This document shows, piece by piece, positions 5,754-58,472 of a stretch of DNA of 58,553 nucleotides; the first letter of the stretch is position 1, and every line of letters begins with the position of its first letter. A model generated the notes under the pieces. The model saw nothing but the letters and a program-made list of their open reading frames with translations, was not told the DNA's origin and did no database searches. The stretch lies in the sequence record SRR20825006_787, one strand, 5' to 3'. The position numbers and the translations under genes were made by a program.

Positions 5754-7132
5754 GCCCGAGTATCCTGATCATCGATGATGAAGAGGACATCCGTAGCATC
5801 CTCGCCATGCACCTCAAGAAAGAGGGCTACAAGGTGGATGCCTCGCCAAATGGCGAGGAGGGGCTCAAGCGACTGATCGCTCGCGGGCACGATATGGTCA
5901 TCTGTGATGTGCGCATGCCCGTGATGGGAGGGCTCGAGCTGCTCGATGAAATCCGGGAGCGCGAGATCGACACCACCGTGATCGTGATGAGCGCCTTTGG
6001 CAACAAGGAGCTCGCCATCGACGCGATCAAGCGCGGCGCCTACGACTACTTCAACAAGCCGTTCACGCGCGACGAGGTCCTGCTCACGGTCCTCAAAGCC
6101 GAGGAACGCCTCAAGCTCAAGCAAGAGAACGCCGTCCTCAAGGCCGCCACGCAACCCGACCCCTCACACTCGTTCGAAGGAATCATCGGCAAGAGCGAGC
6201 TGATGCAGAAGGTCTATCAGACGATCCGCAAGGTCGCGTCCTCTCGCTCGACGGTGCTGATCGCTGGCGAATCCGGCACAGGCAAGGAGCTCGTCGCGCG
6301 CGCCATTCACAACCTCTCGCCGCAGGCTAACGGCCCCTGGGTCGCCATCAACTGTGGCGCCATCCCCGAAGCGCTCATCGAATCCGAGCTGTTTGGCCAC
6401 AAAAAAGGAGCGTTCACCGACGCGGCTCATGACAAGCGTGGGTTGTTCGAGGAGGCGAGCGGCGGGACGCTATTCCTCGACGAGATCGCCGAGCTCCCCT
6501 TGAACACACAGGTCAAGCTGCTGCGCGCGCTGCAAGAACAAGAGATTCGGCGCGTCGGTGAGAACAAGCCAATAAAGGTCAACGTCCGCATCATCGCAGC
6601 GAGCTTGCACAACCTGTCCGAGCGCGTGCAGGAAGGACTCTTTCGCGAGGACCTCTTCTACCGCCTCAACGTCATCCCGATCGAGCTCCCCCCGTTGCAT
6701 CGACGACGAGATGACATCGAAGCGCTGGTCGATCACTTCATCCACGTCCAAAACGCCAGACAGGGCACGAACATCAAGGGCGTGACCGAGGAAGCGCTCG
6801 AGCTGATGCGCAACTACGCGTGGCCAGGAAACATCCGAGAGCTGCAGAACTGCATCGAACGCGGCGTGGTTTTGACAGGAGGAGACACGATCGATGTCGA
6901 CGTCCTCCCGGAGCGGATCAAGGAGTCCAACGACGAGCTCAAGCAACTGTTCAGCTCCGACGAGCTCTCCATCAAGAAGATGTCCACGATGCTCGAACGC
7001 ATCCTGATCCGGCGCGCGCTCGAGAAGACGCGCGGCAACCGCACCAACGCATCCAAGCTGCTCGAAATCAGCCATCGAGCCTTGCTCTACAAGATCAAGG
7101 ACTACGGCCTCGAAACGGTCGGCATGGATTGA
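5750..7132 (+). CDS. Sigma-54-dependent NtrC-family response regulator (PilR2-like)
   Basis: Receiver (IIDDE, DVRMP), GESGTGKE, GAFTDA, WPGNIRELQN, Fis HTH; ATGA overlap with the kinase stop supports a start at 5750. Confidence 0.93.
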   Translation: MSPSILIIDDEEDIRSILAMHLKKEGYKVDASPNGEEGLKRLIARGHDMVICDVRMPVMGGLELLDEIREREIDTTVIVMSAFGNKELAIDAIKRGAYDYFNKPFTRDEVLLTVLKAEERLKLKQENAVLKAATQPDPSHSFEGIIGKSELMQKVYQTIRKVASSRSTVLIAGESGTGKELVARAIHNLSPQANGPWVAINCGAIPEALIESELFGHKKGAFTDAAHDKRGLFEEASGGTLFLDEIAELPLNTQVKLLRALQEQEIRRVGENKPIKVNVRIIAASLHNLSERVQEGLFREDLFYRLNVIPIELPPLHRRRDDIEALVDHFIHVQNARQGTNIKGVTEEALELMRNYAWPGNIRELQNCIERGVVLTGGDTIDVDVLPERIKESNDELKQLFSSDELSIKKMSTMLERILIRRALEKTRGNRTNASKLLEISHRALLYKIKDYGLETVGMD

Positions 7133-7165: not shown

Positions 7166-9085
7166 TCAGGTCAACCTGTGGAGCTTGAAGGCGAACTCTT
7201 TTGTCGGGTAATCGACGTCGAAGAGTTGGTCGTAGATAAAGCCGCCGAAGTTGTAGTTCCCCGGCGCGACATCATCGAAATTACACGAGCGCATGAAGAC
7301 GATGGCGGCCTTGGTCGCGGCATCGATCTCTTCGTGCGTGAGCTTCTCGAGGCGAGCTTCAGCGCTCTTGCGCAGGAAGCGATTGTAGATGTCGAGGAAG
7401 AGCCCGCGCATGGTGTCGACCTCGCCCATCGAGCGGCGATAAATCTCTGGCAAGAAGCGTGTGGTGTCCTCGCCAAAAGCCTCGCGCGTCCAGTTAAAGA
7501 ACGTGTCGAGGAAGCCCTCGAGCCCCGTATCACCGACCGCGCGCAAGACGAAATAGCACGTGCGCAGTTGATTCGTGACGTAGGTGTTGAGCGTATCCGA
7601 GTTGATGTGCGCGCGTGCGCGCTCGACGAGTAGCTCGGGGGTGGGCTCCTTGCCCTCCTGTGGCAAGTAGTAGGGGCGCCAGCGACGAGGCGGGAGGAAC
7701 TTGAGCAGGTTATCCGTCGCGCCATCGAGCGCGGAGCGCTGCCCCACCTGTCGCCAGGACTGCACCTGTTGTGGCTGACGCATGAAGAGGTGGAGCTTGA
7801 TAAAGAGGTTCTTGTCGAGCCAACGCGACAGCTCGAGCAGCTCGGTGTCCCCTTTCGGGATCTTCTCGAGCTGGGTCTTCATCTCGGCGGCGACCGGGTG
7901 ACGGCGACGGATGCCGAGGCGCTGGATCATATCCTCGTAGAAGATGTTGCGATCGTTACGGATGCGCGTGACGCGATCTGTCTGGAAGAGTTGGAGCAGG
8001 ATGCGCGCCTGGGAGAACATCCCCTCGCTGAACTTGCGCTCGACGATGCGAAGCAATTGCTGGGCGCGATCTTCGAAGTCCTCGTTTCCAACGAAATAAC
8101 CCACGAGCAAGTCGCGCGCGAGCATGGTCTCTTCGAGGCCAAGCTGGAGGTCGTAAGGGAGGCGATCGTTCTCGATCAACATCCCCAAAAAGACGCGGCC
8201 AGCCTGAAGCACTTCGCGCTGATCGACGCGGGGGAGGTCATCCTCGCCCTCCGCATCGGAGTCAGGGTTTAGCACGGAGCGATCGAACTCGGCGGTCGGC
8301 TCGATGGGCGTGATCTCCTCGATCAGCTCGGAGTCCTCGTCGAGGAACTCCTCTTCCTCCTCGATCGCCTCGAGGATTTCGCTCTCTTCGACCTGGGATG
8401 CTTCGACCTCCTGGGCCTCGCTCTCCTCTTCTTCCTCGGCGTCGCTGGATTCGATAACTTCGAATTCTTGCGTCTCCTCGGCGACCTCGCCGGGGACAGC
8501 GCCTTCTTCTTCCTCGCCATCGTCAGAGCCGTCAGCTTCATCAGCGTCCGGGACAACCCCCTCTTCTTCTTCCGAGGGGCTCATCGCATCGCGCAAGGCG
8601 GCGGGAGTCTTGTACTCGCGAGTCTTGGAGGTCGACTTCTCCTCGGGAGCGGCATCGAGCGGGATGCTCCCGACCTCTTCAAACTCATCGGTCTCGTCGA
8701 TTGGTTCGGAGTCAGCGACGAGCTGGTCGTCTTCGAGGTCGTGCTCCTGCTCCTGCGACTCCTCGGGCGATGAGCTCGCATCCGGGGCTGCGTCAGGCGC
8801 GACAGGAGGTGTGGGAGGGGGAGGCGGCGGCGCATGCTTTGAAGATGAACGAGGACTATGCTCGTCGATCAACGGTCGACGGATAGTCGGACTCCAGGCG
8901 CCACGCATGGAAATGCGCAAGATCTCAGCGATGACAAGCAGGAGGGGATCGTGCTCCTCGCAGTCATCGAGTTCGGCGATCACCCCTGGCTCGACCTGAG
9001 TCAACAGGAAATCGAGGTAGCTCCCCTCGAACTCCGGCGCTTCCTGGTCGTCGTTCTTGAAGAACTTGAGGAATCGTTTCAACAT
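7166..9085 (-). CDS. Hypothetical protein with Pro-rich and acidic low-complexity region and a helical C-terminal domain
   Basis: Long ORF with native-like composition; start placed at MLKRF (9085), uncertain. Confidence 0.75.
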   Translation of the reverse strand: MLKRFLKFFKNDDQEAPEFEGSYLDFLLTQVEPGVIAELDDCEEHDPLLLVIAEILRISMRGAWSPTIRRPLIDEHSPRSSSKHAPPPPPPTPPVAPDAAPDASSSPEESQEQEHDLEDDQLVADSEPIDETDEFEEVGSIPLDAAPEEKSTSKTREYKTPAALRDAMSPSEEEEGVVPDADEADGSDDGEEEEGAVPGEVAEETQEFEVIESSDAEEEEESEAQEVEASQVEESEILEAIEEEEEFLDEDSELIEEITPIEPTAEFDRSVLNPDSDAEGEDDLPRVDQREVLQAGRVFLGMLIENDRLPYDLQLGLEETMLARDLLVGYFVGNEDFEDRAQQLLRIVERKFSEGMFSQARILLQLFQTDRVTRIRNDRNIFYEDMIQRLGIRRRHPVAAEMKTQLEKIPKGDTELLELSRWLDKNLFIKLHLFMRQPQQVQSWRQVGQRSALDGATDNLLKFLPPRRWRPYYLPQEGKEPTPELLVERARAHINSDTLNTYVTNQLRTCYFVLRAVGDTGLEGFLDTFFNWTREAFGEDTTRFLPEIYRRSMGEVDTMRGLFLDIYNRFLRKSAEARLEKLTHEEIDAATKAAIVFMRSCNFDDVAPGNYNFGGFIYDQLFDVDYPTKEFAFKLHRLT

Positions 9086-28825: not shown

Positions 28826-30061
28826 ATGAGCTCTCCAGAACCAAATGACGCGCTCATCACCTTCTCCGAGATCGAGGATGCGCGTGACCGCATCCGCAAT
28901 GCGCTCCGGGTGACTCCTTGCACCCACAGCGAGCTCCTGAGCGCACAATCGGGAAGCAAGGTTTACCTCAAATTCGAAAACCATCACATCACAGGTTCAT
29001 TCAAAGAACGCGGTGCATGTAACAAGCTGATGACGCTGACGCCAGAAGAGCGCCAACGCGGCATCATCGCATCGAGCGCTGGCAACCACGCGCAAGCGGT
29101 CGCCTATCATGGCTCGAGGTTGGGGATATCGACCAAGATCGTCATGCCCGAAGGAACCCCACTGGTCAAGATCACCCGCACCCGCAAGTTCGGCGCCGAG
29201 GTCGTCCTCCACGGGAGCGACTACGACGCAGCTTATCGCAAAGCATGCGAAATCGAAGAGGAGGAAGGACGCGTCTTCGCGCACCCCTTCAACGATCGCG
29301 CTGTGATCGCAGGTCAGGGGACGATCGGCCTCGAGCTGCTCGAGCAAAACCCTTACCTCGACGCTGTCGTCGTCGCCATCGGCGGCGGCGGGCTGATCTC
29401 TGGCATCGCCTGCGCGATCAAGGAGACCAACCCGAAGATCCGCGTCATCGGCGTCGAACCCGAGGTGCTAACCTCGATGAAGACCGCCGTCGAAAAACAA
29501 CAACCGGTCGAGATGCCCGAGGCAAACACGCTGGCTGATGGCGTCGCGGTGCGAAAGGTCGGAGACCTGACGCTGGCCAACGTCTCTCACTACGTCGACG
29601 ACATCGTGACCGTCAGCGAGGAGCAGATCGCCAACGCGATCTTGACGCTGCTCGAGCAGGAAAAGACCGTCGCCGAGGGCGCTGGCGCGGCCGCGGTCGC
29701 CGCCATCACCGAGGATCGCATCCCCGGGCTCAAGGGCAAGAAGGTGTGTCCGATCATCTGCGGCGGAAACATCGACGTCAACGTCATCGCGCGCATCATC
29801 GAGCGCGGCCTCGTCGCCGCCGGTCGCCTCTGGCGCGTGGAGGTGATCATCACCGATACGCCAGGTTCATTGGCGGCAGTGCTCGGACTGGTCGGGGAGC
29901 TCCGCGCGAACGTGCTCGAGGTCTACCACAACCGCACGTTCACCTCCGGGAAGTCATTCGGCACGACCCACATCGAGCTCAAGCTCGAGACGCGCGGCGA
30001 GGATCATATCGCCGAGATCAGAAAGCGCCTGATCAAGAAGGGCTATCAGCTCGTGGAGTGA
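28826..30061 (+). CDS. ilvA: Threonine ammonia-lyase (ACT-domain type)
   Basis: GSFKERGA PLP lysine, SAGNHAQ, GGGGL, C-terminal ACT (DTPGSL). Confidence 0.93.
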   Translation: MSSPEPNDALITFSEIEDARDRIRNALRVTPCTHSELLSAQSGSKVYLKFENHHITGSFKERGACNKLMTLTPEERQRGIIASSAGNHAQAVAYHGSRLGISTKIVMPEGTPLVKITRTRKFGAEVVLHGSDYDAAYRKACEIEEEEGRVFAHPFNDRAVIAGQGTIGLELLEQNPYLDAVVVAIGGGGLISGIACAIKETNPKIRVIGVEPEVLTSMKTAVEKQQPVEMPEANTLADGVAVRKVGDLTLANVSHYVDDIVTVSEEQIANAILTLLEQEKTVAEGAGAAAVAAITEDRIPGLKGKKVCPIICGGNIDVNVIARIIERGLVAAGRLWRVEVIITDTPGSLAAVLGLVGELRANVLEVYHNRTFTSGKSFGTTHIELKLETRGEDHIAEIRKRLIKKGYQLVE

Positions 30062-30689
30062 GCGAGCTCATACAAAGATCGCGCAACGTCACCGATGCCT
30101 GACGTCGCACGCCTTCGGTGAGAAACTGCACGCTGATCTCGAGCGCGGCGCCGACCACCAACGTCACCAGCGCCCGCGCCAGCGGGTAATCGCAAAGGTC
30201 CTCGTGTTTGCCCATGGGCACGCGGTAATCCTCATCCCAGATCACCTCTCCGTAACCATCCGCCATCCCCGCGTGAACACAGGGGATGGCCAGCTCGCGC
30301 GCGGCACTCTGCACTGCCTGACGAGAGGCGCTGTTGTCGAAGGCGTCGATAATCAGATCATGTCCAGCGAGGATCTCCACCGAGTTCTCGGCGTGGAGCC
30401 TGTCGCACAAAGCGACAGGCTCCACGCCGAGTTCCCTGTGCAACCTGTTCCCGAGCATCCTCGCCTTTCTCTGGCCGAGTTCGCGACGCCCCCATGGTTG
30501 CGTGGAGAGGTTGCGCTCTTCGATACGGTCAAAGTCGATGACCGTGATCTGGCGCACCCCGACTCGCGCCAACCCTTCGCACAGGTTGGCTCCGATCGCT
30601 CCAGCCCCGCATACAATAACCCTGGCGGCGGCGAGCGAACGCATCGCCTCGCTGCCGCGGTGTTCTCTCTCGTGTTCGAAATACGACAT
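30033..30689 (-). CDS. ThiF/E1-like adenylyltransferase
   Basis: CGAGAIG, IDFDRIEERNLSTQ, DAFDN; single Cys in DLCDYP; no CxxC zinc pairs. Confidence 0.88.
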   Translation of the reverse strand: MSYFEHEREHRGSEAMRSLAAARVIVCGAGAIGANLCEGLARVGVRQITVIDFDRIEERNLSTQPWGRRELGQRKARMLGNRLHRELGVEPVALCDRLHAENSVEILAGHDLIIDAFDNSASRQAVQSAARELAIPCVHAGMADGYGEVIWDEDYRVPMGKHEDLCDYPLARALVTLVVGAALEISVQFLTEGVRRQASVTLRDLCMSSLTPRADSPS

Positions 30690-30692
30690 CCA

Positions 30693-31589
30693 TCACTCCC
30701 ACCAGCCAGCGCCCTCGACCACGCCCACCAGTGACTCCAGATCGAACTTACGATCCTCTCCGCTCAAGCAGATCCCGGCGCTGACCACACCGAGATCCTT
30801 CACATCGACCACAGAGGTCTGACGCGCGCCACCAGACGTTCGCCACTCGACAACCCAGCGACGCCCATCTGGCGTCGCGTGCGAGCGCTCGTACGCCCCG
30901 CCAGCGCTCTCGAGCGCGTGGCGCAATCGCTCGCGATCCTGCGCCTGACTCTTCGCGACCTTCGCGGCGATGGCAGCTTCCAACTCGCGAACCATCGCGG
31001 CCCAGGCGATCTCGTAGGCCGCGCGTTGCTCTGGCGAGTAACCTCGCGTGGAAGCAAAAACCGTGTCGGGCTTTCGACGCGCCTCGAGCGCGTCGCGCAG
31101 CCGCTCGCCAGCGGCAAAATCCGCGCGAACATCGAGCGACTCGAACCACCAGCGCACGCCATCCCAACCCGCGATGACGCGATCGAAGGCGTCGCCCTCC
31201 CCGACCAGCTCGATCACCTGAGGCGCTTTCGCATCACGCAACGACGGGCAGCGCTGGCTGGCATCCGAGGCGTTACCGGCGATCGCCAGCCAGCGCTGCC
31301 CGGAGAGCCGCCGGATCAAAATCAATGGCACGCACGGGAGCAGTGATATGTAGCGCTCGACTTGCGAGAGCGAGGCTGGCTCGACCAGCCTCGCTGTGCG
31401 CATATCCACCGCGCGCCAGATCCCCCACCCTTGCCACTCCTCGGGCTCGATCACGGCGAAGGTATGGAGCAAGCCTTCGACGCACACCTTGACGCCAGCG
31501 CGGCCGACGCGCGGGGCCAGAAAATCCAGCCTCGTGAGCTCACGCTCGGCGCTGGCGAGCGCGTCGAAGGTTTTCCAAAACTGCTTCAT
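30693..31589 (-). CDS. Hypothetical protein of the TROVE/ThiF operon
   Basis: Start MKQFWK after GAGGAAGG RBS; GWGIW and SAGICLSGED motifs; 3-nt gap to ThiF. Confidence 0.72.
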   Translation of the reverse strand: MKQFWKTFDALASAERELTRLDFLAPRVGRAGVKVCVEGLLHTFAVIEPEEWQGWGIWRAVDMRTARLVEPASLSQVERYISLLPCVPLILIRRLSGQRWLAIAGNASDASQRCPSLRDAKAPQVIELVGEGDAFDRVIAGWDGVRWWFESLDVRADFAAGERLRDALEARRKPDTVFASTRGYSPEQRAAYEIAWAAMVRELEAAIAAKVAKSQAQDRERLRHALESAGGAYERSHATPDGRRWVVEWRTSGGARQTSVVDVKDLGVVSAGICLSGEDRKFDLESLVGVVEGAGWWE

Positions 31590-31606
31590 CGTCCTTCCTC
31601 GAGCGA

Positions 31607-32440
31607 TCAGGCACGCGATGAGGTCTGCGAGCGCGCCGACTGCACACAAAGCCCCGCGACGAGCTCGATCGATGTCACCGCGGACTGGATCGAGGCGAAG
31701 TTGACCTCTCCAGGTTTGACCCTGGCGCGATCGAACACACTGGCGACCTGCTCCTCGGACAACCCCATGCCCTGACACATAAAATCTGACGCGGGACCAC
31801 GGTGCCGCACACCAGGAGCGCGCGAGCGCTTGAGCCAGAAGTGACTCACGATGTGAAAGACGTGCCCCTGGCCCCAATCAAAGCGCACGGCGACCACGGG
31901 GGCGTTGTATTTGACGAGCATCTCGTGGCTCGCGGCGACGACCTCGACGCGCTCAGGATCGAGCACCTCGATGCCGTAGCTCGCCCCCTCGAGCCACCAC
32001 TGCGGCTCGACGCCGGGCACCGTCACCTCGTCCCAGAGCGTGGCGAGCATCGGCTCGACGCCGATCACCTCGTCTCCGGTCGAAGCCTTGTTCCAGCGCA
32101 CCGTGTTCGGGAACGCCTTCTCCACGACATTCTTTAGCGCCCAGTCAGACGTCACCAACCAACCCCCTGCCTCGACGAAGCTGCGAAGCTCCTCGAGGTG
32201 TTTGGCGTCATCATCGCCGGGGCAGTTCTCGAAGCAGATCCGCGCGCCCTCGAGCGAAGAGGGCGCGAAGCTGTAATCCTTCTCCAGGTGCGTGAAGACG
32301 TTCTGCACGGAGTCGAACGATCCTGCAAAAATCGCGATCTCTTCTGACGTCGTCGCATCGAGCGCCGCGAGCGCATCCGGCTTGACCATCGACCAGCGCT
32401 CGCGAACCGCGAGCGCGCCGACCTTGTATGCGTTATCCAT
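31607..32440 (-). CDS. Hypothetical protein, possible class I glutamine-amidotransferase-like fold
   Basis: GGAGG RBS; ENCPG and LRSFVEAGGWLVTSDW resemble a GATase/ThuA-like pattern (inference). Confidence 0.65.
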   Translation of the reverse strand: MDNAYKVGALAVRERWSMVKPDALAALDATTSEEIAIFAGSFDSVQNVFTHLEKDYSFAPSSLEGARICFENCPGDDDAKHLEELRSFVEAGGWLVTSDWALKNVVEKAFPNTVRWNKASTGDEVIGVEPMLATLWDEVTVPGVEPQWWLEGASYGIEVLDPERVEVVAASHEMLVKYNAPVVAVRFDWGQGHVFHIVSHFWLKRSRAPGVRHRGPASDFMCQGMGLSEEQVASVFDRARVKPGEVNFASIQSAVTSIELVAGLCVQSARSQTSSRA

Positions 32441-32587: not shown

Positions 32588-34072
<1,485 letters not shown>

Positions 34073-34353
34073 TCACACCTCTCGTGGCGCCGCCGCAGCG
34101 AACTCCAGAGAGCATATTCGAGAAAGCCCCTCCATCGTCTGGAAAGGAGCGGGTATCAGGCGAGGTTGGTGTCTGGCCTGATGAGAAAAAGGACTCGGGC
34201 GTAGAGCGCGCTCCGTAAAGATACGCGAGGAAGACCCGCGTGTTCGAGGAGCTCGGAAAGTAGCCCGAGACAAGGCTCGTTTTGGGTATGAAGAGAGTGA
34301 TTCTCCAGGGGCGACACCGCTCGCGCGAGTCGCCTCGTTTGTGCTGTCCTTAT

Positions 34354-34429
34354 TGGCGTCGCGTGCCAGAATCGAACTGACAACCCTCCGCTTGGCAGGC
34401 GGGCGTTCTACCTATTGAACTAACGCGAC
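34354..34429 (-). tRNA. tRNA with Gly(GCC) anticodon, atypical acceptor stem, CCA encoded
   Basis: GTCGCGT-TA-GTTC..GAAC-CCCGC-CTGCCAA-GCGGA-GTCAG TTCGATT CTGGC-ACGCGAC-G-CCA. Confidence 0.75.
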
Positions 34430-34570
34430 AGGACCGAAGCTGTCGGGACACGAGAGTTTGCGCGCCACCCCCAGAGAATCACTCGAATGTTGCTCGAGAG
34501 CAGCAAAGGAGACAAGACCCCTGGGAACCAAAATCACACCGCACGAGTCGCGCGCACCGCGAGAGACCTC

Positions 34571-34643
34571 GAAGACGCGCCGGATTCGAACCGACAACCC
34601 ACGGGTTATGAGACCGTACTCTACCAATTGGAGTTAGCATCCG
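34571..34643 (-). tRNA. Degenerate tRNA-like gene, CAT anticodon
   Basis: D arm ACTC/GAGT, loop CTCATAA, T arm GTCGG TTCGAAT CCGGC; mismatches in acceptor and anticodon stems; no CCA. Confidence 0.55.
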
Positions 34644-34846
34644 GTGCTCGCGGTCAGGGCGCGGTGTGTCATCGGTCGATGACATACGTCCTCCACATCT
34701 TAGGGAGGCGACCTCTCCTTCGAGGATGGCCTGCCGTGGGGGTCTTCGACGACCTGTCTTGTCGCGGATTTATTCTGGTCGAAGGTATCGCCTCTGTCTT
34801 GATCAGTCACTCGAAGTTGGCCTCGCGCGAGTCCCAGGGGCACAGG

Positions 34847-34920
34847 ATTCATACGCAGGGATCGAACCTGCTACCTACAGCTCCCGAAGCCGTCGCTCTA
34901 TCCAGATGAGCTAGTATGTG
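34847..34920 (-). tRNA. tRNA-like gene, Pro(CGG) anticodon, frayed acceptor stem
   Basis: CACATAC/GTATGAA (top two pairs mismatched), GCTC/GAGC D arm, loop TTCGGGA, GCAGG TTCGATC CCTGC. Confidence 0.55.
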
Positions 34921-34982
34921 TGTAAGCCCCTGTTGTTTGGGCGCGAGGTTATGTTTTTGGCGCATGCCTCCATGCACCTGAG

Positions 34983-35054
34983 TACCACCAGACCGACTCG
35001 AACGATCTCCCTCTGGGCTTCAACCAGACGCTCTCCCTGTTGAGCTATGGTGGT
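34983..35054 (-). tRNA. tRNA-Phe(GAA)
   Basis: ACCACCA/TGGTGGT acceptor, TCTGG TTGAAGC CCAGA, GATCG TTCGAGT CGGTC; no CCA. Confidence 0.8.
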
Positions 35055-35084
35055 ATGGTGCGGGGAGGTATTTCCTCCCCGCGA

Positions 35085-35156
35085 TGCCGCCAGACCGACT
35101 CGAACGATCTCCTTCTGGGCTTCAACCAGGCGCTCTCCCCGTTGAGCTATGGCGGC
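35085..35156 (-). tRNA. tRNA-Phe(GAA), second copy
   Basis: GCCGCCA/TGGCGGC acceptor; nearly the same body as the neighbouring copy; no CCA. Confidence 0.8.
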
Positions 35157-35248
35157 AAACATTTTCGAGCAAGACTGCAAACACAGCCCACCCGAAAAAC
35201 ATCAAAAACTTTGATGCTTATTTTAAACAAAAGACACCGCGCGAGTTC

Positions 35249-35366
35249 GATGAGCAGTAAGACGTGCTTGCGCTCTCACCATCTGAGCTATCCCGCTACA
35301 AATAGCGGGAGCCGGACTCGAACCGACGACCTCAAGGTTATGGACCTCGACGTTTGTAGGCTCATC
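35249..35366 (-). ncRNA. Y RNA-like (YrlA-type) RNA with circularly permuted tRNA fold
   Basis: 5'-3' order: T arm (35327-35311), closed acceptor hairpin TCCCGCTA-TTTG-TAGCGGGA (35310-35291), D arm (35288-35272); ends pair as GATGAGC/GCTCATC. Confidence 0.75.
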
Positions 35367-35556
35367 ATGTCGGGGCGCGGCGCCCCTTTCGGTCTATGTA
35401 CTCTCCTCGGAGGAGCTGCCCATCATCTCGCTGTGAACGCGATGAAAGGGCAACCCCTCCGAGGTTCGGCATCCGCCCGCCCCCACTTCCCCAAGCTGCT
35501 GTTAATAACGCGGGCGGACGCCGAAGTCCTTGTATGTCTCTCTCCTCGCCCCGAAG

Positions 35557-50533: not shown

Positions 50534-52480
50534 TCAACACGCCTCATCATCGGCGCAAGTCCAACGATAACCGAGGATCAGGATCGCCAGCGTGTTCCCC
50601 ATGCCAAAGAACTCCCAACAATACTGGGGCATGATCGCCGCGGCGATCGCGGCGAAGGCGTAGAGAACCCCGGCGACGATCGCCAGCGGTTCGACGAGCA
50701 CCCCCATCGTCAACGTGATCATGGCATAGGCGAGCACCTCCATGGCGATCCCGTCGAGGGGCTCGATCTTCAGGAGCGCCATCATCACGCGCGCGAGGAA
50801 CCCGGTCAGGACGATCACTCCCAGAAACCGCATCAGGCGCAGGTTGATCTGATTGACCACGACCATCGAACGCATGGCGCCACCGATCACGGCGATCGCC
50901 GCCGCGACCGTGACGCTGGAGGCGATCATATTCTGGTAGGTCAGCTCGAAGAGGTTGGCGCGCAGCGCGAACCCCACGCCGAATGAACCGACGCTCCAGA
51001 TCGCGCCCACGAGGAAGGTTAAAATACCGCGCTGTCGCCTCGCCATCGAGAGATCCATCGACCTCTCCATCCGCTCGAGTTCTTCGAGGCGCTTGCTCTC
51101 GCGTTCCTTTCGAGATCGCAGCCGCTCGATCTTCTCGAGCAACGCAGGGTCCAGGTCATCGACCTCGACCAACAACGCCTCGACCTCGACGAGGTTGCCC
51201 GAGGCAACCTCGATGGCGAGCATCGCCATGGACGCGCGGCGCAAACCCTGACGCGCGTCCGCATTCTCGGCCCAGATGCGAAGCGCCTGCTGGTAACCGA
51301 AGCGACAGGTGCCAAAGAGCCCATGCGCGGCGGTGACCTCTTCGCTGGCGAGCTCGTCTTGCTGTGAAAGTGCCTCCAACTCCGAGAGCGTCTGCGCCAA
51401 GTCGCGCGCGATCTGGCGCGAGCTGCGGTGGCGACGGAACGCCGCGAGCGCCTGCCGGAACGCCTCGGCGTCCTCGAACCTCTCGTCAGGCTCGACATGC
51501 ATCGCCCGGTTGCAGAGCTCGGCGAGTTCTTCGGGGATGTCCTGATGCGCCGAGTAATCGAACGGCTCCGAGCGATAGGCCGAAAACATGATCGAGTAGA
51601 GGTCGGAGCCAAGGTGACGCACCTGCCCGACGAGCAGCTCGTGGAGGATCGCGCCGAGCAGGTAGACGTCCGTGCGCGGCCCGAGCTTGTGAGCGTCACC
51701 GGCGGCCATCTCGGGCGCCATATAACCCGGCGTGCCAGCAGGCTGGTTGGCATCGCTGGCGAGCGGGAGCTGCGTGTTCTCATCCTCGACCATCGCCACG
51801 GCGATCCCCCAATCGACGAGATAAACCTCACCGAAGGGGCCGAGCATGACGTTGTCCGGCTTGATGTCACGGTGGAGGATGTGCCTGCTGTTGGCAAAGT
51901 GCACCGCCTTGCAGACATCATCGAGGATGTCGAGATCGGCCTCGAGCCGATCCTCTCTGGAGAAGATCTCGGGGAGGCGATCGGGCTCCTCGATGGCATC
52001 GGCCCAGGAGACCCCTTCCACGCGCTTCATCACGAACAGCGGACACCCGTGCTCGTCCACGCCGAGGGAGTGCACGGGGATAATGTTCGGGTGTTCGAGG
52101 CGGCCTGTGATCCAGGCCTCTCTCAAGAGCTCCCGGCTCGCGCTCGTGGAGCGGCGATCCTCTCTGATGGTCTTTACGGCGACCTCACGACCGATGGTGC
52201 TCTGGCGCGCGAGGTAGACGACCCCCATGCCGCCCTGCCCCAGCGTGGCAGTGACGCGGAGTTCACCATCACTCTGCCTGGACGCGGTTAACCTGGGCAA
52301 CTCGTCGACGAGGACGCCGAGCTCTCTGGATTGACGGAGCGCGGGAGGAACGAGTGTCTCGCCACCCTCTATCACCAGCGTCTCCGCCTCGGCATCCATT
52401 TGGAGGGTGTCCCAGATCGTCTCCCAACGCTCTCGGACGCCATCATGCGCCGGAGCATCTGCATCAGGAGCTCGATTCAT
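50534..52480 (-). CDS. Ser/Thr kinase with coiled coil and multi-TM C-terminus (paralog A)
   Basis: GQGGMG, VAVK, HRDIKPDN, DWG, GTPGYMAPE; start 52480 or 52507. Confidence 0.9.
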   Translation of the reverse strand: MNRAPDADAPAHDGVRERWETIWDTLQMDAEAETLVIEGGETLVPPALRQSRELGVLVDELPRLTASRQSDGELRVTATLGQGGMGVVYLARQSTIGREVAVKTIREDRRSTSASRELLREAWITGRLEHPNIIPVHSLGVDEHGCPLFVMKRVEGVSWADAIEEPDRLPEIFSREDRLEADLDILDDVCKAVHFANSRHILHRDIKPDNVMLGPFGEVYLVDWGIAVAMVEDENTQLPLASDANQPAGTPGYMAPEMAAGDAHKLGPRTDVYLLGAILHELLVGQVRHLGSDLYSIMFSAYRSEPFDYSAHQDIPEELAELCNRAMHVEPDERFEDAEAFRQALAAFRRHRSSRQIARDLAQTLSELEALSQQDELASEEVTAAHGLFGTCRFGYQQALRIWAENADARQGLRRASMAMLAIEVASGNLVEVEALLVEVDDLDPALLEKIERLRSRKERESKRLEELERMERSMDLSMARRQRGILTFLVGAIWSVGSFGVGFALRANLFELTYQNMIASSVTVAAAIAVIGGAMRSMVVVNQINLRLMRFLGVIVLTGFLARVMMALLKIEPLDGIAMEVLAYAMITLTMGVLVEPLAIVAGVLYAFAAIAAAIMPQYCWEFFGMGNTLAILILGYRWTCADDEAC

Positions 52481-54395
52481 ACGAATCTCCGATTTCGTCC
52501 CCGCCATGGAGCGTCCAGATGGCGCCGATACAACCGAGCAGGATCAGGTTCACCGCGACGCGAATCGGCCAGCTGTACTCGGGCATAAAGAATGTGCCGA
52601 CGCCGCTCAACAGGCAAAGCGGACCGAGCTTGACCAGGCGCCTGTCCGAGAAGAGCCCGACCCCCATGGTGAAGAACGTGTAGAAGATGGACTCGAAGAT
52701 CACCGTCTGCTCGGTCGTCATCCCCTGGATCAGCCCACCGAAACGGATCGCGACGCCCGCGAGCATCAGGAAGCCGAGCGCGTGGATCACGTTCTTGCCA
52801 AAGTCATTGAGCTTCACCTTCACGACGATGGCCGTCAGGATCAACATCGAGATGGCCAGGTCGACGAGCTTGAACTGGAAGATCTCCCAGTCATCGAGCC
52901 GCAGCCAGCCTATCTGCGTGAGGATCACCTGGACGATGTTGAGCAGCGCCAGCGAGAGCGCCAGCATGACCATGGCGATGCCTCGTTGGCGGCGATCGGC
53001 GCGAGGGTCGCGCTCGCGCTCCGCCGCCTCGAGCGCCTCGATCCTCTTTCGCTCCGCGTCGATCTCTTGCTCTAACTCTTCGAGGCGCTGCGAGAGAGCG
53101 CCCTCGTCATCCTGGATCTCCTGGAGCAGCGAGCGCGCGGCGACCACGTTGTGTTGCTCGATCTCGAGCATGATCATCGTGCGCACGGTGCGCTCGAGCC
53201 CATCGAGAGAGTCCTTGTTGTCTGGCCAGATCTCGAGCGCCTGCTCGAACCCGAAGCGACACTCGCCATACAACCTGTATGCCTTGATCAGATGCTCCTC
53301 GCCAAAGGTCTCGATCTCGCTGGCGAGCGCCTCGAAGCGCTCGAGGCTCGCGAGGGCTTTCTTCGAGACGCTGATCGAGGCGCGGTGGCGGCGGTACTCG
53401 GCGACCGCGCGGCGCAGCTCCTCGGCGTTCTGATAGCGCTCGGTGATTTCCTTGTGCGTGGCGCGGTTGCAGATCTCTGCGAGCGCATCGGGGACATCAT
53501 CCGCGTACTCGAAGGGCGCGGATCGAAACGCCGCGAACATCGTCGAGAAGAGGTCCTTGCCATGGTGTCTGGACTCCCCGGTGAGCACGAAATGCAGCGT
53601 CGCGCCGAGCAAGTAGACATCTGTCCACGGCCCGAAGTCTTCGGTCTTCACGCCCGCCATTTCAGGCGCCATGAACGCGGGCGTTCCCGCCGGCGAGGAG
53701 ATATCGCACACCGAGGGGATGGCGTGCTCGTTATCATCGAGCGCGATGGCGATCCCCCAGTCGACGAGATAAATCTCACCGAAGGACCCGAGCATGACGT
53801 TGTCTGGCTTGATATCTCGGTGGAGGATCTTTCGACTGTGCGCGAAGTGTGCCGCGCGGCACACCTGCTCGAAGATCTCGAGGTGCACCTCGAGCTCATC
53901 CTCTCCCTCATAATACTCGGGCAAGCGATCGGGCTCCTCGATGGCATCAGCCCAGGAGACCCCCTCCACGCGCTTCATCACAAACAGGGGGCGTTGGCGC
54001 TCGTCGATGCCGATCGAGTGCACGGGGATGATGTTCGGGTGTTCGAGGCGGCCCGTGATCCAGGCCTCTCTCAAGAGCTCCTGGTTGGCGGTCGTCGAGG
54101 TGTTGGAGTCGCGGATGGTCTTGACGGCGACCTCGCGACCGATGGTGGTTTGCTCGGCGAGCCAGACGACCCCCATGCCGCCCTCGCCGAGTACGTTCTT
54201 GACCTGAATATCACGCTGTTCGCTGTAATCTTCGAGGCGATCGGCGGCGTTGGTGCGCGCGACCTCGGCGCTGCGCATGGTGGTCGAGTAGAGCGTCTCG
54301 TCCTGTGCGGCCATTGTCTCGCGCGTGATCGCGAAGGTGTCCCAGCGATCACGCCAGACTTGTGTGACTCGGTCGTCCTGCTCGTCGATACTCAT
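52464..54395 (-). CDS. Ser/Thr kinase with coiled coil and multi-TM C-terminus (paralog B)
   Basis: GEGGMG, HRDIKPDN, DWG, GTPAFMAPE; long identical stretches shared with paralog A. Confidence 0.9.
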   Translation of the reverse strand: MSIDEQDDRVTQVWRDRWDTFAITRETMAAQDETLYSTTMRSAEVARTNAADRLEDYSEQRDIQVKNVLGEGGMGVVWLAEQTTIGREVAVKTIRDSNTSTTANQELLREAWITGRLEHPNIIPVHSIGIDERQRPLFVMKRVEGVSWADAIEEPDRLPEYYEGEDELEVHLEIFEQVCRAAHFAHSRKILHRDIKPDNVMLGSFGEIYLVDWGIAIALDDNEHAIPSVCDISSPAGTPAFMAPEMAGVKTEDFGPWTDVYLLGATLHFVLTGESRHHGKDLFSTMFAAFRSAPFEYADDVPDALAEICNRATHKEITERYQNAEELRRAVAEYRRHRASISVSKKALASLERFEALASEIETFGEEHLIKAYRLYGECRFGFEQALEIWPDNKDSLDGLERTVRTMIMLEIEQHNVVAARSLLQEIQDDEGALSQRLEELEQEIDAERKRIEALEAAERERDPRADRRQRGIAMVMLALSLALLNIVQVILTQIGWLRLDDWEIFQFKLVDLAISMLILTAIVVKVKLNDFGKNVIHALGFLMLAGVAIRFGGLIQGMTTEQTVIFESIFYTFFTMGVGLFSDRRLVKLGPLCLLSGVGTFFMPEYSWPIRVAVNLILLGCIGAIWTLHGGDEIGDSYESSS

Positions 54396-57322: not shown

Positions 57323-57338
57323 CGCGCTGGCAGGAGAA

Positions 57339-57412
57339 TGACCCAGGTGGGACTCGAACCCACAACATACCGATTTTAAGTCGGCTGCCTCTGCCGATTG
57401 GGCTACTGGGCC
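57339..57412 (-). tRNA. tRNA-Leu(TAA), short variable loop
   Basis: GGCCCAG/CTGGGTC, GCCGA CTTAAAA TCGGT, A73, no CCA. Confidence 0.85.
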
Positions 57413-57416
57413 ACAA

Positions 57417-57489
57417 TGCCTCGGGTGGGATTCGAACCCACAACACATCGGTTCTGAGCCGACGTCCTCTGCCGTTGGGATACCGAGGC
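57417..57489 (-). tRNA. tRNA-Leu(CAG), short variable loop
   Basis: GCCTCGG/CCGAGGC, loop CTCAGAA. Confidence 0.85.
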
Positions 57490-57496
57490 AAACAAG

Positions 57497-57582
57497 AGGG
57501 CGAGGTGGGGTTCGAACCCACAGGACATGAGAGCTCGCGATTTGCAATCGCGCCCCGCTGCCAATTACGGGACTACTCGCCC
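57497..57582 (-). tRNA. tRNA-Cys(GCA), long variable region
   Basis: GGGCGAG/CTCGCCC, loop TTGCAAA, U73. Confidence 0.8.
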
Positions 57583-57616
57583 TTGTTTGTATGCGCGCCA
57601 ACCTTTGGTTGGCGCA

Positions 57617-57689
57617 TGCCCTGGGTGGGACTCGAACCCACAACGCACCGATTCTGAGCCGGCGTCCTCTGCCATTGGGATACCAGGGC
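57617..57689 (-). tRNA. tRNA-Leu(CAG), short variable loop
   Basis: GCCCTGG/CCAGGGC, loop CTCAGAA. Confidence 0.85.
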
Positions 57690-57727
57690 TTATGTGACCT
57701 GCAACTCGGGAGAGAGCGAGCAGGTGA

Positions 57728-57802
57728 TGCCTCGAGTGGGGCTCGAACCCACAACGCACCGATCCTTAGTCGGCGTCCTCTGCCAGATTGGGATACCGAG
57801 GC
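57728..57802 (-). tRNA. tRNA-Leu(AAG), A34
   Basis: GCCTCGG/TCGAGGC, GCCGA CTAAGGA TCGGT. Confidence 0.82.
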
Positions 57803-57827
57803 AAACAGGAGCGTTCAGGCTCCCGAG

Positions 57828-57912
57828 AGGGCAAGGAGGGATTCGAACCCACAAGGCGTAAAGCTCTCGATTTGCAATCGAGCCCCGCTTCCAATTACGA
57901 GTCTACTTGCCC
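57828..57912 (-). tRNA. tRNA-Cys(GCA), long variable region
   Basis: GGGCAAG/CTTGCCC, CTCGA TTGCAAA TCGAG, U73. Confidence 0.8.
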
Positions 57913-57959
57913 CTATGTGTGGTCCTTCGCGCGAGTCGTCAGAGCTTCTCGACAAGCGA

Positions 57960-58033
57960 GAAACAACGCAGGACTCGAACCCGCATCACTCTGAGTTGCG
58001 ATCAGATGCCTCTTCCAATTGGGCTAGTATGTA
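57960..58033 (-). tRNA. Degenerate tRNA-like gene (loop TCGCAAC, GCA anticodon)
   Basis: D, anticodon and T arms intact; acceptor TACATAC/GTTGTTT poorly paired. Confidence 0.5.
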
Positions 58034-58063
58034 AGCTCCAACCGTAAGGGCGCGAAGGACCAG

Positions 58064-58136
58064 TGCCTCGGGCGGGACTCGAACCCACAACATACCGATT
58101 CTTAGCCGGCATCCTCTGCCATTGGGATACCGAGGC
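58064..58136 (-). tRNA. tRNA-Leu(AAG), A34
   Basis: GCCTCGG/CCGAGGC, loop CTAAGAA. Confidence 0.82.
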
Positions 58137-58170
58137 ATCGCTTCATGCGTTTCTGGCGCATGAACACGAG

Positions 58171-58254
58171 TGGACAGGGAGGGACTCGAACCCCCAAGGT
58201 CGAAAGACAGCTGGGTTACAACCAACCACGCTACCGATTACGTTCTACCCGTCC
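58171..58254 (-). tRNA. tRNA-Tyr(GTA)
   Basis: GGACGGG/CCTGTCC, loop TTGTAAC, variable arm, A73. Confidence 0.82.
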
Positions 58255-58280
58255 ATATGCTCGCCAACGCTGGCGAGCAG

Positions 58281-58354
58281 TACCCTGGGTGGGACTCGAA
58301 CCCACAACAAACCGCGTTTGAAACGGCTCCCTCTGCCAATTGGGGCACCAGGGC
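58281..58354 (-). tRNA. tRNA-Leu(CAA), short variable loop
   Basis: GCCCTGG/CCAGGGT, GCCGT TTCAAAC GCGGT. Confidence 0.82.
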
Positions 58355-58388
58355 ATGAGCTTGGCGACGACATCGCGACGACAAGCAG

Positions 58389-58472
58389 TGGATGGAGAGG
58401 GACTCGAACCCCCAAGGCCCGAAGGCAACTGGTTTACAGCCAGCGACGCTACCGATTACGTGCTATCCATCC
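58389..58472 (-). tRNA. tRNA-Tyr(GTA)
   Basis: GGATGGA/TCCATCC, GCTGG CTGTAAA CCAGT, variable arm. Confidence 0.85.

Follow-up and report, generated by a model that had tools for sequence, protein, structure and literature searches.

The stretch of DNA analysed here, 58,553 nucleotides (nt) of sequence record SRR20825006_787 and hereafter called the window, carries on its minus strand a gene (34048-32588) for a Ro60-like protein, P0001, and upstream of it a row of tRNA genes and tRNA-like elements. Part of this upstream DNA (34103-34840) had been flagged in a sequence-only reading as a possible large RNA of nested helices with tRNA genes at the helix tips. A conserved RNA-quality-control particle, familiar from human autoimmunity as well as from the stress responses of bacteria, consists of Ro60 and its Y RNAs. 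Our best reading is that the flagged interval makes up the 3' two-thirds of an array of modular non-coding RNAs, encoded on the minus strand and belonging to the Ro60-like gene. For comparison we used two related loci, L081, whose protein is 99% identical to P0001, and L082, whose protein is 85% identical and whose upstream DNA is approximately 72% identical to the window. The elements of the array and its gene, and one further module, are as follows.

35233-35384, minus strand: module Y1, with a circularly permuted YrlA-type tRNA-like core (T arm, closed acceptor-like hairpin, D arm), outside the flagged interval
35083-35157 and 34982-35054, minus strand: two ordinary tRNA-Phe(GAA) genes (ARAGORN; Rfam tRNA 57.6 and 56.9 bits)
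34821-34948, minus strand: module Y2, the canonical member, with a core (34845-34920) called as tRNA-Pro(cgg) (Rfam 40.1 bits)
34669-34820, minus strand: Y2-Y3 spacer with local hairpins, weakly conserved in L082 and present in RNA contigs that bridge modules
34535-34668, minus strand: module Y3, with a degenerate tRNA-like core (34571-34643), anticodon CAU (Rfam tRNA 29.2 bits)
34295-34484, minus strand: module Y4, with tRNA-Gly(GCC) at 34354-34429 (Rfam tRNA 63.7 bits)
34105-34294: structured leader between Y4 and the start codon, with three hairpins and a closing stem
32588-34048, minus strand: P0001, Ro60-like protein of 486 residues, with an N-terminal helical repeat domain and a vWA domain
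57908-58075, minus strand: an extra module

Read along the minus strand, the YrlA-type permuted module is followed by the two tRNA-Phe genes, the Pro-like, Met-like and Gly modules and then the 486-residue gene, and both L081 and L082 retain the order Phe-Phe-Pro-like-Met-like-Gly-gene. The modules sit 250-1350 nt upstream of P0001, and all ARAGORN and Rfam tRNA calls near the flagged interval are on the minus strand. A search of the phage collection gave no DNA similar to 34050-35450.

The modules share one plan, in which a tRNA-shaped head is carried by a rod formed from its own leader and trailer. From the outside inward, these flanks pair as an outer helix, which is variable, and a conserved helix H2; next come an asymmetric internal loop, helix H3 and the acceptor stem. 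Each clamp, as we call the H2-loop-H3 element, opens with a helix of 7-10 base pairs (bp), and its internal loop has the invariant letters CC-Y-R-A-Y on the 5' side and R-A-C-U-Y on the 3' side. The flank consensus of the family reads CACUUCGCGCC-CUAAC-..-A.AAAGCUU, then the head (ACAUAC ... cloverleaf ... GUAUGAAC), then AAC-AGCUUU.UU-AACUU-GCGCGAAGUG. Modules were searched for with a covariance model, R1 (157 positions, 37 pairs), which was built from 46 modules, none of them from the window, L081 or L082; a sequence-only nhmmer profile of the module was used beside R1 to count full-length matches in related loci. The R1 search of the window gave no plus-strand matches.

In Y2, H2 pairs 34941-34948 with 34821-34828, the loop is CCAAAC / GGACUC and H3 is CAGGGGC / GCCCCUG; the core bears the near-invariant acceptor strand of the family, ACAUAC/GUAUG. 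R1 matches Y2 over its full length (34804-34966, model positions 1-157 of 157, 89.6 bits, E 4e-22), and the nhmmer profile matches it at E 4.6e-16. As read by eye, H3 stays paired in L082 through a C-G to G-C change. The Pro-like anticodon is cgg in the window versus tgg in L082. The 3' strand of this local H3, with its loop, is the 34832-34840 arm (TCCCAGGGG) that the sequence-only reading had paired with CCCCTGGGA at 34518-34526; both arms are where they were placed, but the long-range pair has no counterpart in L082.

Y3 shows the same arrangement, with H2 formed by CACACCGCGC / GUGCGGUGUG (34659-34668 with 34535-34544), the loop CCUGAC / GACUC and H3 CGCGAG / CUCGCG. R1 matches it in full (34520-34684, 59.3 bits, E 5.5e-14), and its order and motif are the same in L082. 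Two pairs of arms noted earlier around the CAT tRNA-like gene, CACACCGC (34535-34542) / GCGGTGTG (34661-34668) and ACCGCGAG (34556-34563) / CTCGCGGT (34647-34654), are present and turn out to be H2 and H3 of the covarying, family-wide motif. The enclosed genes themselves were also correctly recognised: ARAGORN and Rfam call a Gly(gcc) at 34354-34429 and a weak CAT tRNA at 34571-34643, both on the minus strand.

Y4 encloses a tRNA-Gly that looks real, with a perfect 7-bp acceptor stem, a discriminator and an encoded CCA. Around it are nested H3, the loop CCCGAC / GACUC, H2 (34448-34454 with 34320-34326) and a 21-bp outer helix (34464-34484 with 34295-34315). The clamp letters, CUCGUGU-CCCGAC ... 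GACUC-GCGCGAG, were read by eye and are separated by longer inserts than in the other modules; R1 aligns only the tRNA core (34359-34427, 37.8 bits, E 3.5e-8). The arms quoted earlier for this unit, GAGTGATTCTC (34295-34305) and GAGAATCACTC (34474-34484), are exact and are the outer end of the 21-bp helix, which is kept in L082, where it stays paired through two double changes, G-C to A-U and G-C to U-A (by eye). On the minus strand the unit (34290-34490) folds at -91.6 kcal/mol (z -4.68, 0 of 200 shuffles as good), versus -75.7 kcal/mol on the plus strand (z -1.85, 6 of 200).

Y1 lies upstream of the two tRNA-Phe genes. Its clamp, read from the sequence, is built as in the other modules (helix, CC-C-G-A-C : G-A-A-C-U-C loop, helix), and R1 matches it over its full length but weakly (35218-35400, 36.9 bits, E 5.9e-8). 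The Rfam YrlA family (RF02553) matches at 35268-35335 on the minus strand with 32.6 bits (E 7.7e-5), below its gathering score of 69 bits. Chen et al. (PMC4201824), in the part of their account available to us, warn of a tandem-tRNA artefact; the acceptor-like arms of Y1 are complementary and closed by a short loop, and we therefore take it for a true permuted tRNA-like core. Immediately 3' of Y1 (35190-35232, minus strand) come a U-rich run, then an A/U-rich hairpin and a T run, which by eye resemble an intrinsic terminator separating Y1 from the tRNA-Phe genes; with too few G-C pairs, this hairpin was not listed by the consensus scan. Most of the terminator-like sites that the scan did list coincide with module helices that have a U-rich run behind them. 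A hairpin also separates the two tRNA-Phe genes, neither of which carries the clamp flank motif (checked on their equivalents in L081 and L082).

Homologues of P0001 were sought in a collection of 5.8 billion proteins, where an E value of 0.001 or lower was reached by 2311 of 8000 scored sequences. Of the candidate stretches, 574 of 582 were confirmed in species-representative genomes, the best 80 of them being mainly cyanobacterial, and 117 of 203 in metagenome contigs; identity between the window protein and cyanobacterial members is approximately 60%. All linkage counts refer to 160 fetched loci carrying the Ro60-like gene (the best 80 of the 574 confirmed on contigs of species-representative genomes and the best 80 of the 117 confirmed on metagenome contigs), 137 of which have at least 1 kilobase (kb) of upstream sequence. 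Within 3 kb of the gene, ARAGORN called 238 tRNA-like genes upstream on the strand of the gene, none upstream on the opposite strand and one downstream, with at least one upstream call in 113 of the 137 loci. With the nhmmer profile, 262 of 262 full-length matches were upstream and co-oriented, and at least one was present in 122 of the 137. Most loci have two modules (78 loci); the others have one (20), three (16), four (7), seven (1) or none (15). In three complete genomes (6.3-9.5 Mb), all eight R1 matches of at least 58.7 bits, some of which are modules of the training set, lie within approximately 2.5 kb upstream of the gene, and the next best match (55.5 bits) covers a tRNA core only. 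Apart from rare exceptions, modules lie immediately upstream of genes of this family and point in the same direction.

Pairing between the 60-nt flanks was assessed for 218 unique leader/trailer pairs out of the 238 tRNA-like genes. The median duplex energy was -30.4 kcal/mol, versus -21.6 for mismatched partners and -16.7 for shuffled trailers; energies of -30 kcal/mol or lower were reached by 51% of true pairs, 15% of mismatched pairs and 6% of shuffled ones. Both flank motifs of the clamp were present in 143 of the 218 under a loose regular expression and in 138 under stricter patterns. The median for motif-bearing matches was -33.1 kcal/mol, versus -23.4 for the other tRNAs of the same loci, and matches without the motif are mostly ordinary tRNAs in long arrays further upstream.

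Covariation, looked for upstream of homologous genes, was strong. The alignment held 101 modules, 95 of them non-redundant picks from the 143 motif-bearing matches and six added by hand from the window and L082, and RNAalifold folded it into H2 (10 bp), H3 (8 bp) and the D, anticodon and T arms. Over the 32 pairs tested, 95.3% of cells were paired versus 79.3% in column shuffles (0 of 500 as high), and the covariation score was 0.537 versus 0.221; double changes occurred in 30 of the 32 pairs, and sliding the pairing partners dropped the paired cells to 37-51%. H2 was paired in 96.9% of cells, with double changes in nine of its ten pairs, and H3 in 93.5%. The pattern by which rows were selected imposes purines and pyrimidines on the inner five pairs of H2 and leaves the outer five free of constraint; most of the double changes fall in these outer pairs (22-30 each), which the hand-added rows of the window fit too. 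Every one of the 101 rows has the internal-loop letters CC and A on the 5' side and AC on the 3' side, and 100 of them have the U. The modules are real, discrete and repeated, and their helices covary.

The heads evolve differently from decoding tRNAs. The 5' strand of the acceptor, ACAUAC, is conserved to at least 90%, whereas the anticodons comprise more than 30 types plus loops of 6 nt; among the odd ones are ctt, att, tta and cta (stop and Pyl types) and 6-nt loops reported as "tt." In canonical modules approximately five acceptor pairs are conserved and the stem continues into H3, with no CCA or discriminator. Because the acceptor strand is near-invariant while the anticodon loop varies freely, the heads look like tRNA mimics, and from their sequences most of them would not be decoding tRNAs; the Gly core, where the anticodon gcc and the CCA are kept, is an exception to the free variation. 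The cores score 29-64 bits against the Rfam tRNA family (RF00005, gathering score 29 bits) in the window and 38-59 bits in 16 loci. Since the permuted Y1, the unpermuted heads and the real-looking tRNA-Gly all use the same clamp, the conserved functional element that defines the family would be the clamp rather than the head. Among the ARAGORN and Rfam "tRNA" calls in the cyanobacterial loci (L001-L080), many with stop (tta), Pyl (cta), att or undetermined anticodons are mimic modules. Such calls are likely mis-annotated as tRNAs or suppressor tRNAs, and approximately 100 cyanobacterial "tRNA" annotations with stop, Pyl or odd anticodons are probably these mimics.

P0001 starts at an ATG that is preceded, by 7-8 nt, by GGAGG. 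Sequence searches place it poorly: Pfam gave a weak VWA_2 match only, vWA_Ro60 matched five of 28 family members below its cut-off, phmmer of P0001 against the PDB gave no match and NCBIfam gave nothing usable. An AlphaFold2 model built from a 28-sequence alignment (pLDDT 76) was used for a Foldseek search, in which the 13 best PDB rows were all Ro60 or TROVE chains (E 2e-11 to 2e-9, approximately 460-510 aligned columns), with Xenopus, human, Deinococcus Rsr and phage phiLo proteins among the top rows. VIA-align to the Rsr of D. radiodurans (2nvo) gave Z 16.2 and a root-mean-square deviation of 5.3 Å over 424 residues (model residues 14-469). From this model we read P0001 as a divergent Ro60, with a predicted Ro60 fold over both domains. 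The earlier proposal is supported in so far as the region encodes a conserved structured RNA with ties to tRNA-like elements and to the downstream "TROVE-vWA" gene, whose product has a predicted Ro60 fold. So far as we know, the search for bacterial Y RNAs has taken TROVE-annotated proteins and the CGAA motif as its starting points. Because Pfam TROVE does not detect the protein, this family would escape any census that relies on TROVE annotation.

The array resembles known Y RNA systems in layout and departs from them in its motifs. In the accounts available to us, Y RNAs are encoded within 4 kb of Ro60 on the same strand and have a stem of paired 5' and 3' ends with an internal bulge and, in bacteria, tRNA-like domains (PMC4201824, bioRxiv 10.1101/312249, PMC12135203). 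As described for YrlA and YrlB with Rsr, the modules lie a short distance upstream of a Ro60-fold protein on the same strand, often two per locus, and combine an end-paired stem with an internal loop and a distal tRNA-like domain with D and T arms. Module Y1 (35268-35335) also has the permuted core of YrlA. In contrast to YrlA as described, the heads of Y2, Y3, Y4 and the cyanobacterial modules are unpermuted, so that the stem enters at the acceptor end and not, as in YrlA, at the anticodon stem, and their anticodon arm is intact and hypervariable. GNCGAAN0-1G, the canonical Ro60-binding motif in the 5' strand of Y RNAs, is replaced by the two-strand CC-Y-R-A-Y / R-A-C-U-Y loop. On the minus strand of 34049-35450 the GNCGAAN0-1G motif has a single match, in a spacer and at chance frequency; this GUCGAAG (34750-34744, between Y2 and Y3) was considered as a hidden YrlB-type site and dropped, because it is not kept in L082 and is expected by chance. 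No YrlA match at E up to 1 was found over the three canonical modules of L028.

Two further systems come close. In Thermus phage phiLo, as far as the account available to us goes, the RNA genes Yrl1 and Yrl2 lie upstream of a divergent Ro60, phiRo60, and have a stem-bulge-stem structure (PMC12135203; PDB 9kop, 9l5y). PhiRo60 is the best, although non-significant, profile match of the P0001 family and is among its top fold matches. Yrl1 and Yrl2 are defined by a CGAA bulge, and no cloverleaf is described for them in the available part of that account (PMC12135203), whereas the modules lack CGAA. Cyanobacterial L-arrays, according to the part of their account available to us, are clusters of tRNAs and tRNA-like genes, some non-functional, that are linked to rtcB-type RNA-repair and translation-stress genes; they are stress-induced, and their neighbourhoods are enriched in RNA-processing genes (PMC8421152). 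Several of the related loci likewise carry tRNA arrays directly upstream of the modules, and the window has two tRNA clusters. Unlike the modules, L-array genes are described as mostly bona fide aminoacylated tRNAs without a clamp, and neither the P0001 family nor the flank motif is named in the available part of that account (PMC8421152). Our literature search found no description of this protein family with unpermuted tRNA-like partners, which does not prove that none has been published, and the arrangement of tandem tRNA mimics beside a Ro60-like gene is apparently undescribed.

By analogy with these systems, the modules are probably a new class of unpermuted tRNA-mimic Y RNAs that partner a divergent Ro60 family. 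The array would be transcribed with the gene, or just ahead of it, and cut into units of approximately 130-190 nt. The H2-loop-H3 rod would serve as the docking site for the Ro60-like ring, and the Ro60 family would have co-diverged with this RNA motif. YrlA and Yrn1 work with PNPase. The tRNA-like head of the modules may, in the same manner, be the effector end, recruiting a factor that recognises tRNAs or gating access to the ring. If so, the locus would point to a second, sequence-cryptic Ro60 family with its own class of RNA partners, set apart by an unpermuted mimic, a different two-strand putative docking loop and a retained but freely evolving anticodon arm. Such a pair would be a natural experiment on how Ro60 rings recognise RNAs and on the purpose of the tRNA-like end.

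Several observations weigh against this interpretation. That the Ro60-like protein binds the modules is inferred by analogy with Y RNAs. The GNCGAAN0-1G motif was found in neither flank of any of the 101 modules, and the YrlA gathering score was reached nowhere in the window (best 32.6 versus 69 bits) nor in 16 loci; because of these two absences, the assignment to Y RNAs rests on architecture and linkage. On the protein side, Pfam TROVE matched none of 28 family members at E up to 1, the best PDB match of the family profile, the phiLo TROVE protein, was non-significant (E 0.078), and the Ro60 rows of VIA-align (Z 16) barely differ in score from vWA-only rows (Z 15), although they cover 380-424 versus approximately 170 residues. 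The linkage is incomplete, with 15 of the 137 loci lacking a module match. The extra module at 57908-58075 (R1 70.6 bits, E 5.2e-17, positions 1-157 of 157; nhmmer E 3e-18; Rfam tRNA 29.2 bits at 57966-58028, no ARAGORN call) lies 24 kb from the Ro60-like gene, and there is no second such gene near it or elsewhere in the window. The locus counts are not independent, because many loci are from congeneric Microcoleus and a few contigs are common to both collections. The alignment rows were chosen by the loose flank regular expression, so that one C in the 5' strand of the loop, the A in its 3' strand and the five inner pairs of H2 are partly a product of the selection. Finally, the RNA contigs described below give no strand, ends or level, and DNA carry-over into the libraries is possible.

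An ordinary polycistronic tRNA operon would account for part of these data. The flank helices would then be processing signals by which mature tRNAs are freed, for example through double-strand cuts of the kind made on either side of rRNAs, and the Ro60-like gene would be co-transcribed with the tRNAs or the tRNAs would be its substrates. Y4 fits this well: a Gly(GCC) of 63.7 bits with encoded CCA lies inside a near-perfect 21-bp duplex, and since this tRNA looks functional, a role as processing stem is equally natural for the Y4 helices, a further point against a Y RNA role for that unit. The two ordinary tRNA-Phe genes in the same array, and the true tRNA arrays upstream of the gene in L134, L140, L149 and L151, agree with an operon too, as does the expression of cyanobacterial arrays and their aminoacylation under translational stress, reported in the available part of PMC8421152. 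We nevertheless consider an operon of this kind unlikely. A near-invariant acceptor 5' strand combined with free anticodons (6-nt loops, stop, Pyl, att) is the opposite of what decoding tRNAs show; the approximately five conserved acceptor pairs have no CCA or discriminator after them and run on into H3; the invariant loop letters point to a dedicated site for a protein more than to a generic duplex; and the ordinary tRNAs of the same loci lack the clamp and have weaker flank pairing.

The leader between Y4 and the gene behaves differently from the modules and could fit a plus-strand element, such as an antisense RNA over 34105-34294 that regulates the leader of the Ro60-like mRNA. It folds better on the plus strand (-77.2 kcal/mol, z -4.67, 0 of 200 shuffles as good) than on the minus strand (-62.4 kcal/mol, z -3.41, 1 of 200). 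Its 11-bp closing stem, which the sequence-only reading had placed at CATATTCGAGA (34113-34123) / TTTTGGGTATG (34280-34290), is present and pairs on the plus strand only, its four G-U pairs becoming C-A mismatches on the minus strand. The remark in that reading that several stems need G-U pairs of the plus strand is correct for this stem and wrong for the Gly helix, whose 21-bp extension needs G-U pairs of the minus strand. A metatranscriptome contig (34103-34279) with an adapter read at its 34279 end covers most of this leader. Against a plus-strand element, the three internal hairpins form on both strands, contigs are strandless, and neither the sequence nor the structure of 34113-34290 is conserved in L082, where the counterpart is shorter, mostly different and folds at z -1.9 and -2.2 only. 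A sigma-70 scan found a promoter-like site on neither strand. Nor does the plus-strand bias extend to the tRNA-bearing helices, which fold better on the minus strand, and all 262 profile matches are on the strand of the gene; the earlier idea of an antisense RNA is not supported for those helices, and a plus-strand bias is confined to the non-conserved leader. On balance a plus-strand element is improbable. The contig 34103-34279 abuts another contig that ends at 34100; the junction at approximately 34100 could mark a processing site approximately 52 nt before the start codon, which is not conserved in L082.

GOLLD and ROOL are large RNAs that sometimes adjoin or contain tRNAs, and the flagged interval had been likened to the GOLLD type. 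In favour of one ornate scaffold RNA of approximately 740 nt or more, the single-sequence minimum-energy fold does nest the units by joining 34840-34832 to 34526-34518, the 738 nt fold better than shuffled sequence (z -3.0 on the minus and -2.2 on the plus strand, from 20 shuffles per strand, the z scores of subregions being from 200), and one RNA-library contig bridges three modules. A single scaffold is nonetheless very hard to sustain, since the helices resolve into independent, repeated modules of approximately 130-190 nt, the helix that would tie them is not kept in L082 and gives its 5' arm to the covarying local H3 of Y2, modules elsewhere are single or variable in number (usually one to four, once seven) with variable spacers, one contig lacks the whole Gly unit, and Rfam at E up to 10 gave only tRNA, sub-threshold YrlA and chance-level matches in 33900-35400, without GOLLD, ROOL or any other large-RNA family, with none of the GOLLD and ROOL models at gathering level in the whole window.

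Parts of 34050-35450 occur in six RNA runs, and contigs from four metatranscriptome studies cover the array. A 618-nt contig bridges 34340-34934, across three modules and the spacers; other contigs cover 34275-34474, 34506-34859, 35196-35327 and 34103-34279. What these contigs establish is no more than the presence of module and spacer sequence in RNA libraries. In run X17, a single contig of low depth (2.9) connects 34307 directly with 34524, leaving out 216 nt, the entire tRNA-Gly module; a strain without the module, an assembly chimera or a processed form could each explain it. The Ro60-like coding region is partly uncovered in three of the four RNA runs and is of no use as evidence of differential expression.

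Behind the Ro60-like gene, a conserved operon comprises three further genes on the same strand.

31607-32440, minus strand: gene B, 277 residues, no family; common to 12 fetched loci
about 30693-31595, minus strand: gene C, approximately 300 residues, weak tandem OB-fold-like matches; common to 49 fetched loci
30033-30689, minus strand: gene D, 218 residues, ThiF/E1-like (Pfam ThiF 2e-30); common to 15 fetched loci

PADLOC matched only the E1-like gene D, to the E1 part of generic E1-E2 models. For gene C, a model of pLDDT 79 gave no Foldseek match at E up to 0.001; its best match has E 1.6e-3, and the OB-fold-like rows, which point to the Mpa inter-domain and to exosome cap subunits, are no more than leads. 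In the ESM Atlas, genes B and C gave unnamed clusters or nothing. Neither rtcB nor rtcA was seen in the window, and the particle proposed here would be linked to an E1-like enzyme rather than to RtcB/RtcA. The set of genes B, C and D also stands behind the Ro60-like gene in an Acidobacteriota locus (L073).

These neighbours allow a bolder speculation, which we regard as a long shot. The arrays of tRNA mimics, with a constant body and hypervariable anticodon loops, might be baits or sensors for anticodon nucleases, or for other tRNA-targeting factors of phages or competitors; the Ro60-like ring would read whether a bait is damaged or occupied and pass this on to the OB-fold-like and E1-like proteins, as part of a widespread, unrecognised surveillance system of the Ro60 family. 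If this were true, the locus would encode a tRNA-decoy immune or repair module distinct from Rsr-YrlA-RtcBA.

A few minor features complete the picture. In L134, L140, L149, L151, L128 and L130, the DNA immediately upstream of the modules or the gene contains long arrays of ordinary tRNAs (up to approximately 20 in 3 kb); the array of L140 has a short direct repeat scattered among its tRNAs. Downstream of the Ro60-like gene, L034 has a match to a group II intron domain (7270-7347, minus strand, 57.7 bits), and L055 has a short fragment (6631-6715, plus strand) that scores, at threshold, as archaeal large-subunit rRNA (50.3 bits). The extra module of the window is located within its second tRNA cluster (57338-58472), among nine minus-strand tRNA genes (Leu x6, Cys, Tyr x2). 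Downstream of this cluster, at 50534-54395 on the minus strand, are two adjacent Ser/Thr protein kinase genes of approximately 650 residues each (Pfam Pkinase 1e-38 and 2.5e-36).

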